From Sphingobacteriales bacterium (GTDB lineage: Bacteria > Bacteroidota > Bacteroidia > Chitinophagales > JADIYW01), in contig CP064984.1 in assembly GCA_016699615.1 (NCBI GenBank), forward strand, positions 590,185 to 654,184: a stretch of DNA of 64,000 bases, given 5' to 3'. The notes beneath the pieces were generated by a model. It ran no database searches, was not told the origin of the DNA, and was given only the letters and a program-made list of their open reading frames with translations. A program made the translations under genes and the position numbers. Below, piece after piece: positions 3,617 through 56,601 of the stretch. Numbering within the stretch: position 1 is the first letter of the stretch; each line of letters starts with the position of its first letter.

Positions 3617-4302
3617 GAATATTAGGCATTATACCATCAAGGTTTGCATCAACAAGATTACCTGGAAAACCATTAATCAATATTGATGGAAAAACGATGA
3701 TACAACGTGTGTACGAACAGTGTACACAAGCAAAATTATTGAACAATGTTGTTGTAGCAACAGATTGTAGTTATATTTTTAATTCTATAAAACATATAAA
3801 TGGCAATGTCATAATGACATCATCATCGCATGAAAATGGCACAAGTAGATGTATTGAAGTTGTGAAAAATTTAGAAGAAGAATATGACTATGTTGTGAAT
3901 ATACAAGGCGATGAACCTTTTATACAAGCTGAGCAAATTGATGAATTGTGTAATTTTATTATCGAGCATAAAATTGAAATTGCAACGCAAATAAAAAAAG
4001 AATATAACTTGGCATTGAACCAGCAAGCTAATATTGTAAAATGCATTACAGATGACAATGTAAATGCAATAAATTTTACTAGAGCAGAAGTACATTTAAA
4101 AGATAATTATTTTTTTAAGCACATTGGCATTTATGCTTTTAGAAAAGATATATTAATAGAAATAGAAAATTTAAAACCAACAGAAAATGAAATGATAAAT
4201 AATTTAGAGCAACTACGTTGGTTAGATAATAATATTAATATCAAAGTGCAACTTACCAGCTATTCATCAAAAAGCATTGATATAATGAGTGATTTGAATT
4301 AA
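3613..4302 (+). CDS. kdsB: 3-deoxy-manno-octulosonate cytidylyltransferase (CMP-KDO synthetase)
   Basis: The N-terminus ILGIIPSRFASTRLPGKPLINIDGKTMIQRVYEQ and the NIQGDEPFI motif match KdsB. The TTG start overlaps the NfeD stop by 4 nt. Confidence 0.85.
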   Translation: MRILGIIPSRFASTRLPGKPLINIDGKTMIQRVYEQCTQAKLLNNVVVATDCSYIFNSIKHINGNVIMTSSSHENGTSRCIEVVKNLEEEYDYVVNIQGDEPFIQAEQIDELCNFIIEHKIEIATQIKKEYNLALNQQANIVKCITDDNVNAINFTRAEVHLKDNYFFKHIGIYAFRKDILIEIENLKPTENEMINNLEQLRWLDNNINIKVQLTSYSSKSIDIMSDLN

Positions 4303-5911: not shown

Positions 5912-6305
5912 GGTATTTTTATATATTCATTATGGTGTAAATAATATCTAAATTCATCTACTAATTTAATTTTTAAAATTGATTTATTTATAAAAAACAA
6001 AAAATATTCTTTTTTAAAAGTCATTCATGAAAATGATAAAAGCAAAAAAAATGACTCTATTATTCTGTATAATTTTAATAATACATGTATGCTTAGTATA
6101 AATTTTGTAGAAATAGTACAAATTTACATCTTCAAATATCATTATTTATAACTATTTATTGGAAAGAAATACATATTAAAAATAAACACAAAATACTTAT
6201 AATCAATAGTATATAAAACAATTACTATACTATTTTTGACAAGAATCAAGGAAAAAACATGAAAATAAGTTTTTTTTTAAGTTCTATATTTAATTCAGAT
6301 TTGCA

Positions 6306-7022
6306 TTGCAAAACAATCCAATGCTATCAGAGAAAATCAATATAATTTTCAATCATCTACTAGAACAGAATATTACTAGTCATACATTTGATTTATCAAA
6401 AGACAAACAAATTATTTTAAACTACATAAACAAATCTACATATAAAATTATACTTCATGACACTACTAAGTTTAATTTGATTATAGTTAATGACGCTTTA
6501 AAAACTTATTTAGATTTAGATAGTAATTTTTATCATAATAATAACTTAGTATCATTATATTTTAATATTATTCACATAAATAATTTTACAACATTAGGAG
6601 AAGTATTCAAACATATACATCAAAAATCTACTAATGTCTTGATAATGTATTTAACTATCAGTAAGGATAGAATACATTGGAAAGACATTTATAGTATTTC
6701 AAAAATTATGTTTAATGAAGCACATCAAAAACCAAAATATTTATTAACCATTTTAGAAGAAAACCATAGGCTTCCTAAAAAAAATAAGATTGAATTTAAT
6801 ACCAAAATAAAACATATTTCTTATTCAGAGCAAAAAATACTCAAGTATTTATACCATGATTTAACAACTAAAGAAATCGCAGATTTATTACATGTGTCAG
6901 TATATACGATTAATACACATCGTCAAAATTTAATCAAAAAATTAGAGGTTAAATCAAGTCATGGATTAGTTAGGAAAGCAATTGAATTAGGTTTGACAAC
7001 ACCTATACATCATTTCACATAA
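6306..7022 (+). CDS. LuxR-family transcriptional regulator (C-terminal HTH, N-terminal sensor-like domain)
   Basis: The C-terminus EQKILKYLYHDLTTKEIADLLHVSVYTINTHRQNLIKKLEVKSSHGLVRKAIELGL is a GerE/LuxR HTH. The ORF has a TTG at 6306 and an alternative ATG at 6321. Confidence 0.8.
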   Translation: MQNNPMLSEKINIIFNHLLEQNITSHTFDLSKDKQIILNYINKSTYKIILHDTTKFNLIIVNDALKTYLDLDSNFYHNNNLVSLYFNIIHINNFTTLGEVFKHIHQKSTNVLIMYLTISKDRIHWKDIYSISKIMFNEAHQKPKYLLTILEENHRLPKKNKIEFNTKIKHISYSEQKILKYLYHDLTTKEIADLLHVSVYTINTHRQNLIKKLEVKSSHGLVRKAIELGLTTPIHHFT

Positions 7023-25719: not shown

Positions 25720-27235
25720 ATGATACAGAAAATAGGTAGATACATTCCTGCAATATTGTGGATTGCATTCCTATTTTATTTGAGTTTTCTGCCAGTAGAT
25801 AAACTTCACAAAGAAGAATTTGAAGAGAAACTACATGTTGCTGAGTTTTGGCACTTAGTTATTTATTTTGCATTATTTAAGTTACTACAATTTAGTAATG
25901 CCTTTAAAAATTGGCAAATTCTAATTTTCTGTATTTGTTTTTCTATCTCAATAGAAACCTTACAATACTTTTTTGTTCAAGGTCAACAATTTAAAATTAC
26001 AGAAATAATTGCTGCAATAGTTTCATCATTATTGACTTATTATTTTGCTAGTAAAGAAAAAGTTGTAGAAGAAAAAAACATAGAAACAGCCAAAAATGTA
26101 TTTCATTTCAAACATTTAGATTCTTTGCGTGCTATAGGTTGTTGGTATATTTCTATTGCACATATACTTATATTTATTTCAAATTATAAATTACATAAAA
26201 TTCCTATTGAGGAAAATGGTTTTATTGTACAATTTGGGCATATGTTTATCAGTACATTTTTTGTATTGAGTGGTTTTCTAATCTCTTATTTTTTAATTAA
26301 AGAGAAAATCAAGACAAATAAAATAGACATCAAGAAATTTTATATCAGAAGAGCATTTAGAATTTTGCCTGTGTATTTAGTTGGATTATTTGTAATTGCA
26401 TTAATCTATCATCTTATATGCTCGCATATGATAAAGAATGGTTTAACAGATGGAACATTCGGAAATATGTGTTACAATCTAAATGAAAGATTTTTATTGT
26501 ACATAACAATGCTACCTAATGTTGCTTTCTGCTTTGATAGAGTGTATTTTCATCTAAGTAATTATTGGTCTATTGGTGTTGAAGAGCAGTTTTATATTTT
26601 GTGGCCAATTATATTATTATTTTCAAAAAACATTTTCAATTCATTAAGAAATATTTTCATCATTTACACTATTCTACTTATTATCACATTTGCAATTAGT
26701 TTTGGTGCAGCAGAAACAGATACATCTTATCGTATATTTAAGCTAGTATATATTACAAGATTTGCTTGCGTTTGCATTTGGTGGATTTTGTGCTTATGCT
26801 GTTATTAATATTAATCAATTTGAAAAAACAAAATTATATCAAATTATCATTTCAAAATACACACAATTTATAGCATTTATACTTCTAATTATTTTTTCAT
26901 TTATAAAAAACGAATTTATTTTTGCATTTAAGCATGTATTAATAATTATACCTTGCAATGCAATAATAATTTTCAACATGGCAATAAATAAAAACAATTT
27001 ATTTAATATTGAAAATAAATTTCTAAACTATGTTGGTATGACAACATATAGTATGTACGCATATAATTTAATTTTCCTAGATATGTTTGTTGGTATGACT
27101 AAAAATATTTTTAAAACTAACAATATTATCATCTTGATAATTGTACCACTAACTTTGCTTACTTTAGTATCTATTGCATCTTATAAGTACATTGAAATTA
27201 AATTTTTGAATATTAGAAAAAAATATTTCGACTAA
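25720..27235 (+). pseudogene. VanZ-like domain fused to acyltransferase-3 (OafA-type) membrane protein, frameshifted as sequenced
   Basis: ORFs 25720..26808 and 26762..27235. Removing one T from the T3 run at 26761..26763 yields ...LVYITRLLAFAFGGFCAYAV.... The N-terminal ~115 aa is VanZ-like and the rest is 10-TM AT3-like (FKHLDSLRAIGC...). Confidence 0.6.
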
Positions 27236-28031: not shown

Positions 28032-29809
28032 CTAAGCATCTAACGTAAGGTCAAATTTTTGTATAAGATACCTTACACTTTCGTTTGACTCATACAATTC
28101 TTTTGCTCTTTCTCTAGGAACTTTATACACTGGCTCTTCGTTTTTTGGCTTCTGCAAAACAATCTCAAGTTCTAACTGTTTTGTATTGGTATGTTCCAAA
28201 AAGAATGTAATAATACTTGACTTATTGAGTTGCATCATTTCTAAATTGATATTGCTACTTGCAGTAACTAATATTTTATTTTTCTCAAAAACTGGTTGTT
28301 GGTTTTGAATGATATTTAGATATGAATTTTGGGCATTTGGTTTTATAAAACTTATATACTCATCCCAAAATGCAACTATGTTTTCTGAGTTTAATTCTGG
28401 TTTTTCTTTTTGTTGTATATTTTTATCATCATTAATTTCTGCAATTATACTTGTTAATGATGATTTTTTTGCAAGAATTTTCTTAGCTGATGAATTTTGT
28501 GTTGATTCATCTTCATGAGAAACATTTTTTATTTCTACTTTTTTTTCTTCAACTTGAGGTTGCTCAAGTTTAGTTTCAACTTTAGGAATTTCTACTTCTT
28601 CCTCAATAATTTTTACAACTTGATTTTTGTCTATAGTTTGTTTAGACTTTATTCTTTCAAGAAGTAATTTTAGTTTTTTTTTTCGCCTAAAATGAGTTCT
28701 AAAGTATTTTCGATTTGTGTATTTAAGAAGCAAATTTTTAATAAAAACAATTCAACATGTAGTCTTTTATTTTTTGCTTGTTTGTATTGTACATCACATT
28801 CATTCAGATAACTCAATGCATTGAGCAAAAATGTTTCTTCTATGATTTCTGCTTGCGTTAAATATTTTTGAGTTACAGATTCGCTCTTTTCTAATAACTG
28901 AATTGTTTCTGGATTTTTACTGACTAAAAGATTTCTAAAATGCTCACTCAAACCAGCAATAAATATTTCGCCATCAAAGCCATTTCTAATTATTTCATCA
29001 AATGAATTAAGCACAGCAGCACTGTCTTGTGTCATGAAATAATCAGTTATTTTAAAATAATAATCATAATCTAATATATTTAGATTTTTAATTACATCTT
29101 GATAAGTTACTTCGTTACCTGCAAAACTTACAATTTTATCAAACAATGAAAGTGCATCACGCAAACCACCATCAGCTTTTTCTGCAATAATATGTAATGC
29201 TGCATCTTCTGCAACTACATGTTCTTCTTTCGCAATAAATTCTAATTGTTTTACTATATCTTGATTGGAAATTCTTTTGAAATCGAATATTTGGCATCGA
29301 GATAAAATGGTAGGAATGATTTTATGTTTTTCAGTTGTTGCTAAAATAAAAATAGCATAGCTTGGTGGCTCTTCTAATGTTTTTAAGAATGCATTGAACG
29401 CACCAGCACTTAGCATATGTACCTCATCTATGATATACACTTTGTATTTTCCTGATTGTGGTGCAAAACGCACTTGATCTACCAAAGTTCTAATATCATC
29501 AACACTATTGTTGGATGCAGCATCTAGCTCAAAAATATTAAATGATGCATTTTGAGAAAATGATTTGCAAGAATTACATTCATTACAAGGTTCAAAATTC
29601 TCAGATGGTTGTTCGCAATTTATAGCTTTTGCCAAAATTCTTGCACAAGTAGTTTTACCAACACCACGTGGTCCACAGAATAAAAATGATTGTGCTAATT
29701 TTCCTGTAGATAATGCTTTTTTTAAAGTCTCTGATACTTGAGCTTGTCCAACTACGTCAGAAAAACGCATTGGTCTGTATTTTCTTGCGGAAACAATAAA
29801 ATTATCCAT
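28032..29809 (-). CDS. dnaX: DNA polymerase III subunits gamma/tau, encoded in two frames joined at an A10 tract
   Basis: ORF 29809->28670 carries the Walker A motif GPRGVGKTT, a Cys4 module (CEQPSENFEPCNECNSC) and the SRC motif TILSRCQ. The -1 frame continues from the A-run to 28032 with a tau-like C-terminal region. Confidence 0.85.
28674..28683 (-). other. A10 slippery tract (T10 on plus strand) at the dnaX frame junction
   Basis: The minus strand reads GGC GAA AAA AAA AAC TAA. One extra A or a -1 shift gives GAA AAA AAA AAA CUA AAA UUA = EKKKLKL, continuous with the downstream ORF. Confidence 0.7.
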
Positions 29810-29894: not shown

Positions 29895-31202
29895 TTAGAT
29901 ATTTACATGCACATTTCCATCTGCTGAAATATTATCCAGTGATGCATTTTTCAATGTATTGACCAAACTTTCATCATATTGTGCATTCACTTTTATATAA
30001 TTATCAGTAAAGCCATGCATCAACGCTCCTTTCTTCTCTTCTTCAAACAATACTGTTCTGTTGGTGTGTAAATATTGCTCGTAAAACTGCCTTTTTTTCT
30101 TTTCTGATAAACTTCTAAGTTGTGTACATCTATCTTGTCTTACACTCATTGGCACCACATCTTGTATATCTAATGCTTTGGTATTTGCCCTTTCTGAATA
30201 TGTAAATACATGTAAATATGAAATATCTATTTCGTGCAAGAAGTTAAATGTTTGCATAAAATCATCGTTTGTCTCACTCGGAAAACCAACAATCACATCA
30301 ACACCAATGCATGCATGTGGCATAGTAGATTTTATTTTTTGCACTCTGTCTTTATATACATCAGCTTGGTATCTTCTTTGCATCAATGCAAGAATTTTAT
30401 TGCTGGCACTTTGTAGTGGAATATGGAAGTGTGGCATAAATTTGTTGCTCGTTGCTACAAATTCTATAATCTCATCAGTCAATAGATTAGGTTCAATAGA
30501 TGATATTCTAAAACGCTCTATTCCATCTATTTTATCTAGTTCTTTAATTACATCAATTAGTTTATGGTGGTCATCTATTCCTCTTCCATAATCGCCTGTA
30601 TTCACGCCAGTAATTACAATTTCTTTTATATTATTCTGAGCTAATGCTTTTGCATTTTGAATGATATTTTCCAATTTATCGCTTCTGCTTTTTCCTCGAG
30701 CTAATGGAATTGTACAAAATGTACATTTATAATCGCAACCATCTTGAATTTTTAAAAATGAACGTGTTCTTTCTGCTAATGAAAACGAAGGCATAAAATC
30801 ATTTACCTCATTAATTGCTGAAGTATGAATTTGTCCACAGGCATTTTTAGTTAAATCTGTGATAATGCTTGGAAGATTAAACTTATCTGTTGCGCCAAGT
30901 ACTAAGTCTACACCTTTTATGGATGCAATTTCTGCTGGTTTCAATTGGGCATAACAGCCTAATACCACAACAAATGCATTAGGATTCACCTTTAATGACT
31001 TTCTAACTATATTTCTACACTTTGCATCAGCATCATCTGTAACAGAACATGTATTAATAACATATACATCTGCAAAATCGTTAAAATCTACAGTTTCAAA
31101 GCCTACTTGTTTCATTTGTCTAGCTATTGCTGATGTTTCAGAGAAATTGAGCTTACAACCTAATGTGTGAAATGCTATATTTTTGCCAGTAAACATGCTC
31201 AA
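29895..31202 (-). CDS. mtaB: tRNA t6A37 methylthiotransferase (radical SAM, MtaB type)
   Basis: The N-terminus KNIAFHTLGCKLNFSETSAIARQM and the radical-SAM motif CDYKCTFC. Confidence 0.85.
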   Translation of the reverse strand: MSMFTGKNIAFHTLGCKLNFSETSAIARQMKQVGFETVDFNDFADVYVINTCSVTDDADAKCRNIVRKSLKVNPNAFVVVLGCYAQLKPAEIASIKGVDLVLGATDKFNLPSIITDLTKNACGQIHTSAINEVNDFMPSFSLAERTRSFLKIQDGCDYKCTFCTIPLARGKSRSDKLENIIQNAKALAQNNIKEIVITGVNTGDYGRGIDDHHKLIDVIKELDKIDGIERFRISSIEPNLLTDEIIEFVATSNKFMPHFHIPLQSASNKILALMQRRYQADVYKDRVQKIKSTMPHACIGVDVIVGFPSETNDDFMQTFNFLHEIDISYLHVFTYSERANTKALDIQDVVPMSVRQDRCTQLRSLSEKKKRQFYEQYLHTNRTVLFEEEKKGALMHGFTDNYIKVNAQYDESLVNTLKNASLDNISADGNVHVNI

Positions 31203-32228: not shown

Positions 32229-32839
32229 TTATACATTTAAGTGTGATAAATCATTTTCCTTAACTGTATGGAATTTATCGCCATCTAAGCTTAGATGATA
32301 CAAACATGTATTGTTATGTAAAATGTATCCATCTTAGAAATTGGCAAATCCAACAGCATACACATCATTACTCTAAGTGTTCTGCCATGTGTGCAAACTA
32401 ATATTGTTTGGTATGACGCTTGTTTAATTTCGTTAATAAAAGGCAATAATCTATCTGCTAAATCTTGTGCACTTTCGCCACCTTCAATTTTATTATCCAA
32501 CTGACCATCAGCCCAAGATTGTATAATATTGTAATAGTCTTTTTGTAATGTAGGATTATGTTCAACACCTTCAAAAATGCCCCAATCTATTTCATCTATT
32601 TCTGGTCTTACCAAATGTGGTATATCTTTATTGATGAATTCATCAACTGTTTGCCAAGTACGTTTTAATGATGATGTGTACACAACATCAAAATTTATTT
32701 CTTTGTGTGCCTTAAAAAACAATGCTGCTTGTTCTATTCCTGTCTGATTCAAATCAGAATTTACGCCTCTACCTTGAACAACTTGTTTTACATTAAAATC
32801 TGTTTGTCCGTGTCTTATAATATAAATTTGTTTCTGCAT
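32229..32839 (-). pseudogene. histidine phosphatase (phosphoglycerate-mutase-like) family protein, frameshifted near the C-terminus as sequenced
   Basis: The RHG motif IYIIRHGQTDFN. The ORF ends aberrantly (..KMDTFYITIHVCII). Adding one base to the A4 run at 32320..32323 gives KMDTFLHNNTCLYHLSLDGDKFHTVKENDLSHLNV, which ends at 32229. Confidence 0.7.
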
Positions 32840-52919: not shown

Positions 52920-53765
52920 ATGAAAAAGAATATCCTAATCTTGATGTTGCTATTGAGTACAATAACATTTGTACAAGCACAAAAAAATGACAATAAGAAA
53001 TCTAAAGATATTGATGAATTATTTGAAAACTTTGACAATGAACTATTGGGTAAAAATATGAGTTCTATGTTGCAACAAATCCAAGAAAGTCAGAATAATG
53101 TGAAATATGATAAAAGCTATACTTTCAACTTACATTCAAAAGTTAAAAGTGATATTACATCTAACGGAAAAACGGAATCTAATATTATAGGATTTTATTC
53201 ATCAGATCAGGCAAGTATGATGAAACCAGAAAGTTCTAATACTAAACATAGTGAAGATATCAGTATCATTTTTGATAATAAAAATAAAACTATCATCACG
53301 ATTGATGAGCAAGAAAAGAGTGGAATGGCTATGAGTCTTGATGGAATTGGAAATATTATGAAACAATTTGGGTCGATGTACCAGAAAGAAGATGCGGAGC
53401 AAGAAAAACCAAATTATTCGATAACTAAAACTGGAAAAACGAAAACGATATTAGGTTATAGTTGTTCTGAATATTTAATCATTAGTAATGATAAAGATGA
53501 AAATACAGAAAGTAGCGTTTGGGTATCAAAAGATACAAAGATCATTCATTATAATATTATGAATGCATTAGGAAAAGATATGATAGAAAAGAGCAACACC
53601 TATAAAAATCAACTCAATGGTGCTGTATTGGAAATGCATTCTAAAAATTTAAAAACAGGCAATACTTATGATATGACTGTAATTGAACTCAATCAGAAAA
53701 GTATAAGCAAAGATTTATCTAACTATAAAATTACAAGTGGGTTTGATTTTAATGCAGAAGATTGA
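52920..53765 (+). CDS. secreted protein, DUF4412-like (tentative)
   Basis: Signal peptide ending FVQAQ. The GYSCSEYLI segment resembles DUF4412 proteins. Confidence 0.5.
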   Translation: MKKNILILMLLLSTITFVQAQKNDNKKSKDIDELFENFDNELLGKNMSSMLQQIQESQNNVKYDKSYTFNLHSKVKSDITSNGKTESNIIGFYSSDQASMMKPESSNTKHSEDISIIFDNKNKTIITIDEQEKSGMAMSLDGIGNIMKQFGSMYQKEDAEQEKPNYSITKTGKTKTILGYSCSEYLIISNDKDENTESSVWVSKDTKIIHYNIMNALGKDMIEKSNTYKNQLNGAVLEMHSKNLKTGNTYDMTVIELNQKSISKDLSNYKITSGFDFNAED

Positions 53766-54100: not shown

Positions 54101-54135
54101 GTAAAAAAAAAACCTCAAACATAATGTTTGAGGTT
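54101..54135 (-). terminator. Rho-independent terminator of mini-lipoprotein copy A
   Basis: 11-bp stem (aacctcaaaca / tgtttgaggtt), 3-nt loop. On the minus strand it is followed by a long T-run (plus-strand A-run 54103..54112). Confidence 0.8.

Positions 54136-54444: not shown

Positions 54445-56601
<2,157 letters not shown>

Follow-up and report, generated by a model that had tools for sequence, protein, structure and literature searches.

The dnaX gene in a 64,000-nucleotide window of contig CP064984.1, from an uncultured activated-sludge Chitinophagales metagenome-assembled genome (MAG) with 29% GC that GenBank lists as 'Sphingobacteriales', is written in two reading frames that meet at a run of ten A residues. 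The zero frame encodes a gamma-like clamp-loader subunit, and the remainder of tau lies in the -1 frame. The gene is real, conserved, and functional, and recoding of some kind at the run almost certainly yields tau. The main route is probably transcriptional slippage (realignment) by RNA polymerase, to which we give a probability of roughly 0.7. Both the class of gene and the proposed mechanism were already published in 2013, as discussed below. The window means throughout the whole stretch of 64,000 nucleotides.

Anatomy of the dnaX locus

The features of the locus, in coordinates of the window, are the following.

28670..29809, minus strand: dnaX zero-frame open reading frame (ORF), 379 aa, clamp-loader domains I-III, the gamma-like product of unslipped mRNA; GenBank QQR98522.1
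28674..28683, minus strand: A10 tract (plus-strand T10), the presumed recoding site, joining the zero and -1 frames
28670..28672, minus strand: zero-frame TAA stop, one codon past the run, ending the gamma-like product of A10 and A13 transcripts
28657..28659, minus strand: third-frame TGA stop, ending the A9 and A12 products after ...KKTKITS (383/384 aa)
28032..28673, minus strand: tau-specific region in the -1 frame, 213 codons plus stop, a low-complexity linker and then the C-terminal domain; GenBank QQR98521.1
28035..28400, minus strand: folded tau C-terminal domain, 122 aa, Pfam DUF8439 region, the presumed polymerase-binding module

The 379-aa ORF ends GGC GAA AAA AAA AAC TAA, and its translation contains the motifs GPRGVGKTT, C-x8-C-x2-C-x2-C, and SRC. 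Pfam models DNA_pol3_delta2, DNAX_ATPase_lid, and DNA_pol3_gamma3 match residues 22-364, which span domains I-III, and the zero-frame protein scores 439 bits against TIGR02397 (dnaX_nterm). The product expected from each run length was obtained by simulating transcripts with varied numbers of A residues, as listed here with the C-terminal or junction context.

A10 transcript: 379 aa, ..GEKKN (stop)
A13 transcript: 380 aa, ..GEKKKN (stop)
A9 transcript: 383 aa, ..GEKKTKITS (stop)
A12 transcript: 384 aa, ..GEKKKTKITS (stop)
A11 transcript: 592 aa, junction ...LILGEKKKLKLLLERIK... / ..GEKKKLKLLLERIK..
A8 transcript: 591 aa, junction ..GEKKLKLLLERIK..

A14 transcripts place the tau frame in register as well, as A11 and A8 do. 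In these simulations one frame is long past the run, and the other two are closed after one and five codons.

Under the mechanism we favor, RNA polymerase copying the ten template T's would produce mRNAs of variable A number. Faithful A10 mRNA, like A13 mRNA, would be translated into the 379-380-aa gamma-like clamp-loader subunit, stopping one codon after the run, while on A9 and A12 mRNA translation would end five codons past it and yield a variant of 383-384 aa. A11 mRNA, and also A8 and A14 mRNA, would bring the downstream 213 codons into frame and so encode the 592-aa tau with its polymerase-tethering C-terminal domain. One gene would then supply both subunits, in a ratio set by the run and its flanking stop codons.

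A first-pass annotation, made from the letters of the window, had described the ORF from 29809 to 28670 with its GPRGVGKTT, Cys4, and SRC motifs, the T10 run at 28674..28683 with the ending GAA AAA AAA AAC TAA, and a -1 frame open for 213 codons to 28032. All of these coordinates and motifs hold. It had further proposed that one extra A, or a -1 shift, would give a protein of about 592 aa, as the A11 simulation does, and that the unshifted product is gamma-like with tau requiring the shift, in agreement with the end of the zero frame at 379 aa. Its assignment of the -1 ORF to the tau C-terminal type is borne out by the comparisons that follow.

The fused proteins of all six species in which we find dnaX split in this manner are collinear with contiguous DnaX proteins of 560-630 aa, through a variable linker and a conserved C-terminal domain. 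The fused 592-aa protein of the window matches the NCBIfam equivalog model NF011531 (DNA polymerase III subunit gamma/tau) end to end, residues 1-591 aligning to profile positions 1-614 of 614, with a score of 693 bits against a cutoff of 685. For the downstream ORF, the ratio of nonsynonymous to synonymous substitution rates (dN/dS) is 0.14 between two relatives of the A10 type described below (L011 and L012), at a dS near 2 that is close to saturation; this value indicates purifying selection on the -1 ORF. Ratios for more distant pairs were discarded because dS was saturated (1-3.7). An AlphaFold2 model of the last 122 residues has a mean predicted local distance difference test score (pLDDT) of 89.6, and its top fold matches in the Protein Data Bank (PDB) are DnaA domain I and DciA, which have a KH-like fold. 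Precomputed matches to PF28557 are present on homologues. A sequence search of the PDB with the 214-aa C-terminal region returned nothing at E <= 10.

Conservation and authenticity of the tract

The exact 379-aa protein is encoded by 12 contigs of public assemblies. Ten contigs were retrieved (L001-L010), assembled independently and drawn from Joint Genome Institute (JGI) metagenomes, Logan assemblies of one SRA run, an ENA assembly, and an NCBI MAG. Their identity to the window is 99.8-100%, and every one of them shows the A10 run and the two-frame layout of the window. When 5.8 billion clusters were searched with the fused protein, no A11 or 592-aa version from the window species was found.

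Related species have the same arrangement. Among the 120 best-matching clusters, 92 share 70% identity or more with the N-terminal part of the protein. In this set 88 are short, 375-391 aa, and terminate in EKKN or in EKKK followed by 0-5 residues; the other four are long. At the DNA level, the check on relatives by alignment that the first-pass annotation had suggested comes out in favor of the site: A10 and the two-frame layout are kept at the same nucleotide of the gene, nt 1126, in L011 and L012 (80% identity) and in L093 and L095 (72%). The -1 ORF in these four is 210-236 codons long, and identity of the flanking DNA is 51-76% upstream and 18-51% downstream of the run. The relatives in question are not Flavobacteriia, as had been supposed, but Chitinophagales, 'Sphingobacteriales' in GenBank. 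In all four, a TGA in the -1 frame abuts the run on its 5' side (..AGG TGA AAA.. or ..AC TGA AAA..). Overlap of the two frames is therefore limited to the stretch that starts at the run and ends at the zero-frame stop (1-9 codons), and since the run is the sole slip-prone sequence there, the frame change must fall inside it. It also follows that the second ORF has no upstream start codon available in those species.

Two other relatives at 80-85% identity, L091 and L092, have A11 at nt 1126 between the same flanks, GGCG-A(n)-CTAA, and encode a contiguous dnaX of 604 or 611 aa. A change of one base thus swaps which of the two products is templated. L092 has a second run, A9, 30 nt further on in the linker. 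The same arrangement as in the window, with exactly A10, occurs in the distant lineages L045 (Flavobacteriales), L074 (Bacteroidota), and L076 (Raineya).

These observations bear on the proposal that the tract is a sequencing or assembly error for a true A11, or else a recent inactivating mutation, in which case the gene would be one uninterrupted ORF or a pseudogene. The first-pass annotation had regarded such an error as a live alternative, and it was right that the window contains other small indels: positions 26766 and 32320 differ from other assemblies of the same organism, and A11 is found in the two related assemblies just described. However, an identical A10 is present on ten independent contigs from four sources, 88 of the 92 related clusters are short, species only 72-80% identical have A10 at the same site, and A10 recurs in other lineages with the same arrangement. 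Furthermore, purifying selection acts on the -1 ORF, and the gene is an essential one. For the dnaX tract, the error reading is effectively refuted.

The private differences of the window lie elsewhere. At 26766 the window has an extra A (GCAAGC, versus GCAGC in four independent assemblies of the same organism), which splits a 504-aa Acyl_transf_3 gene into 362 and 157 aa (plus-strand ORFs 25720-26808 and 26762-27235); the insertion is likely a residual assembly error or a strain-specific pseudogene. At 32320 the window has T4 where other assemblies have T5, which alters the 3' end of a His_Phos_1 histidine-phosphatase gene and truncates it (ORF 32291-32839, minus strand). Private substitutions are 31318 C->G and, both inside AAAA, A->C at 30889 and 30055.

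It is very improbable that dnaX in the window is a truly split gene, whose 379-aa gamma and C-terminal region are made as separate polypeptides, the latter from its own start, and associate non-covalently. Both the gene caller and the GenBank annotation do report two proteins, and the -1 frame of the window has a 233-aa ORF that starts with a TTG at 28733. This TTG, however, is not conserved, the -1 frame being closed by the TGA just before the run in L011, L012, L093, and L095, and the first ATG of the -1 frame in the window lies far downstream, inside the C-terminal domain. The ORF starts within the linker, exactly where contiguous homologues run on. The established role of tau is to couple the polymerase to the clamp loader, and a tau C-terminal domain that is not tethered could not do so.

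One related species departs from the pattern. L096 (P0046, 76% identity) has no A-run; its gene, at 765-1892, ends in the zero frame with ..LAVLLV, and the other frames are closed within about 15 codons. An ORF for the DUF8439 C-terminal region, at 2042-2572, begins 150 nt downstream, and no single shift would bring tau back. The gene may be genuinely split or degraded, or the locus may be misassembled.

A survey of 80 species-level Bacteroidota loci (related loci L013-L090), covering gene nt about 1090-1160 at the boundary between DnaX domain III and the linker, places the window in a broader context. A run of A9-A11 occurs at this boundary in 61 of the 80 species, genomes of 50-57% GC included. 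Tau is in the zero frame in 56 of the 61. In those 56, the frame entered with one additional A stops within five codons in every case, and the frame entered with one A fewer does so in 77%; the corresponding background, taken over alternative frames of these genes, is 32%. In the other five, all of them A10, as in the window species, tau lies in the frame entered with one additional A and a stop closes the zero frame. The 'inverted' layout is thus a one-base permutation of the common three-frame cassette rather than a separate invention. Judged from these sequences, a Thermus-like slippage cassette appears to be the norm for the phylum.

Slippage by RNA polymerase and frameshifting by the ribosome

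At 29% GC an A10 run by itself is not improbable. What goes beyond chance is the coincidence of a run at the domain III boundary, a tau-homologous -1 ORF of 213 codons, and conservation across species. Runs of A10 or T10 are in fact depleted in the 64-kb window, with two observed versus 8.8 +/- 4.1 expected from dinucleotide shuffles, which fits expectation because slippage at such runs would be a hazard. The only other homopolymers of at least nine residues are an A10 at 54103-54112 and a T9 at 6270-6278. The former lies in a 680-nt gap between convergent genes (52920-53765, plus strand; 54445-55938, minus strand) and the only ORFs that it overlaps are two short ones, of 30 and 91 aa. The latter overlaps no listed ORF and is 28 nt upstream of an ORF starting at 6306.

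Several features favor transcriptional slippage. The run of 9-11 residues is longer than the 7-nt heptamer used by the ribosome, and it matches or exceeds the A9 of Thermus. Nearby stops close both alternative frames, which is what slippage in either direction, by insertion or by deletion, would lead one to expect. The flanks of the run are not conserved between lineages, and no stable RNA structure lies upstream or downstream: the 84 nt downstream fold at -10 kcal/mol (z = -1.06) and the 77 nt upstream give z = +1.89, in neither case better than shuffled sequences. An Rfam search of the whole window found no match. The depletion of A10/T10 runs in the window points the same way.

Some considerations weigh against the account given here. 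The run in the window contains the in-phase -1 heptamers A_AAA_AAA and A_AAA_AAC, as any A-run of at least seven would, so ribosomal frameshifting could contribute or even dominate. Baranov et al. (2005) caution that slippage on 9-nt runs may be suppressed in some AT-rich bacteria, and a search of the available literature library for experimental tests of a two-ORF dnaX, covering Flavobacterium, Bacteroides, and Bacteroidales, was negative. As for the longer product, E. coli tau domain V (2aya) is a weak fold match to the model of the C-terminal domain (rank 17, E 0.17), and a role in polymerase binding is suggested for that domain by its position and family membership.

The principal rival is programmed -1 ribosomal frameshifting (PRF) on the A-run, in which tau would be made from faithful A10 mRNA by the mechanism of E. 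coli dnaX with the outcome reversed. In E. coli dnaX, -1 PRF takes place at A_AAA_AAG with the aid of an upstream Shine-Dalgarno (SD)-like element and a downstream stem-loop. Besides the slippery heptamers in phase in the window, the exact E. coli heptamer is in phase in L074 and L093, and the bare E. coli heptamer is reported in the literature to shift at about 14-16% in vitro. The reversed dnaX arrangement is treated as ribosomal frameshifting by Atkins et al. (2016), with a Chlorobium candidate that has E. coli-like stimulators. The window, however, has neither the downstream stem-loop nor, on inspection of the sequence about 10 nt 5' of the run, an SD-like element, and the sequence around the run differs between lineages. 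A heptamer would also leave unexplained both the 9-11 A's in 61 of 80 species and the near stops in both alternative frames. Finally, the zero-frame stop follows the run by 1-9 codons, varying by lineage, and so is not part of a fixed signal. We consider this rival unlikely, although it is the strongest of those weighed. Regarding the window, we infer that slippage occurs, that it is transcriptional rather than ribosomal in nature, and in what ratio the two products would be made.

Relation to described dnaX genes and significance

The arrangement is not new, although the first-pass annotation had implied that it was. Antonov, Coakley, Atkins, Baranov & Borodovsky (2013, NAR 41:6514) described two-ORF dnaX genes with a DNA-level -1 frameshift, 17 genes from 12 genera in a set of 1106 genomes, of which 12 had poly-A stretches and nine had exactly 10 A's. 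The species named in their Supplementary Figure S3 are Chlorobium luteolum, C. tepidum, Flavobacterium johnsoniae, F. psychrophilum, Coraliomargarita akajimensis, Cytophaga hutchinsonii, Capnocytophaga ochracea, and Prosthecochloris aestuarii. By analogy with Thermus they proposed transcriptional realignment, and the reversed arrangement was later reviewed by Atkins et al. (2016). The window dnaX shares with that class the gene, the gamma/tau boundary, the -1 relation of the ORFs, the A10 (A10 members include F. johnsoniae, F. psychrophilum, Cytophaga hutchinsonii, and Chlorobium spp.), and the conclusion that tau calls for recoding. Its upstream ORF comprises domains I-III, an A run (7-10 in the class, typically 10) stands at the junction, the downstream -1 ORF is homologous to tau, and the position and direction of the frame change are conserved. 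It has every testable defining feature of the class and belongs to it. It differs in coming from a 29% GC Chitinophagales organism outside the 1106 genomes, and in a zero-frame stop only a single codon after the run.

The likeness to Thermus and E. coli dnaX drawn in the first-pass annotation is apt. According to papers citing Larsen et al. (2000), dnaX of Thermus thermophilus has an A9 run at which about 50% transcriptional slippage was shown experimentally. Thermus and the window have in common an A run at the gamma/tau boundary, near stops in both non-tau frames, and, as proposed for the window, two subunits from one gene by way of heterogeneous mRNAs. In Thermus, however, tau is templated and gamma results from slippage, whereas the window templates the gamma-like form and tau would need one added A (or two fewer); the mechanism was shown by experiment in Thermus, whereas in the window it is deduced. 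With E. coli the window shares the gene, the boundary, a slippery sequence of lysine codons, a short product ending about one codon from the site, and two products. It differs in that the E. coli shift makes gamma and the shift in the window makes the longer product, in the absence of the SD-like element and stem-loop, and in a run of 10 nt versus 7.

A non-templated nucleotide at a homopolymer is likewise required for the full-length product of Shigella flexneri mxiE and of endosymbiont genes (Blochmannia, Buchnera) with poly(A) frameshifts, which are rescued by transcriptional slippage. Blochmannia dnaX itself has such a frameshift, inside the tau-only region, and it is thought to be rescued in this way. 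The endosymbiont cases have been read as tolerated degenerative mutations in reduced genomes. The window site differs in lying exactly at the gamma/tau boundary and in being conserved through its clade to about 70% protein identity, as well as in L045, L074, and L076. A sporadic degenerative frameshift of the endosymbiont type was therefore rejected, since the site is conserved in a broad environmental clade of non-endosymbionts. Its boundary position and broad conservation argue that it works as a two-product switch.

A different arrangement was noted in a large Bacteroidales clade. In L026, L057, and L068, dnaX has no A-run, the zero frame stops at 375-383 aa, and the tau C-terminal region is in the +1 frame. 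All 120 best clusters for the L026 protein (78-96% identity) are 375-406 aa long and end ..(A/V/S)RQ(S/P)R(E/G).. before the stop; some occur on 55-122 contigs, and those with a sample or record name appear to come from gut or rumen. Loci of this kind are L026, L057, L068, L097-L102, L116, L120, L157, L161, L168, and L173. Where the locus reaches its stop, the +1 ORF for the tau C-terminal region has 202-311 codons. DNA of ten distinct sequences has an in-phase junction motif, G(T/C)N AGG CAA YCA CGG GRG, located in L026 at 4132-4146. The frame change must fall within about 23 nt, since in L068, the closest case, the +1 frame has a stop 8 nt before the motif, and in L097 and L101 the zero frame stops immediately behind it. 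Among the sequences, the zero-frame stop follows the motif by 0 to 5 codons. On this sequence evidence, the motif looks like a candidate undescribed +1 recoding site in dnaX, and we found no paper on it. Candidate routes are a P-site shift at CGG_G or out-of-frame decoding at NNN_AGG_C. AGG as a rare codon causing the shift was considered and is unsupported, its frequency being 4.2 per 1000 codons. A search for RNA structure common to these loci was negative, and a metagenome scan for the exact motif gave mostly chance matches, with 6 of 80 in dnaX.

We suggest tentatively, as a rather unlikely possibility, that the poly-A tract is an ancestral tunable two-product switch of Bacteroidota/Chlorobi, and that changes between A10 and A11 adaptively reset the tau:gamma ratio. 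If so, a whole environmental clade would have an essential replication protein permanently dependent on the infidelity of RNA polymerase, and slippage would possibly be layered with -1 ribosomal frameshifting in a phylum largely without Shine-Dalgarno usage.

Beyond what was described for the class, the present analysis shows how large the clade is (about 88 clusters), that the tract flips between A10 and A11 among its members, and how the layout relates to the contiguous poly-A cassette. The finding opens no new question, and its practical value is for annotation. GenBank names QQR98522.1 as the whole gamma/tau subunit and QQR98521.1 as 'hypothetical protein IPK18_03040', with no annotation of a recoded full-length tau, so that essential tau is missing from the proteome of the organism. 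Gene calls on several related contigs show the same split into two proteins, which affects counts of genome completeness, essential genes, and pseudogenes for these Bacteroidota MAGs. Within one clade, a one-base change swaps the 'standard' product of dnaX, and a large, environmentally abundant clade is added to the few cellular cases in which an essential gene product depends on recoding.

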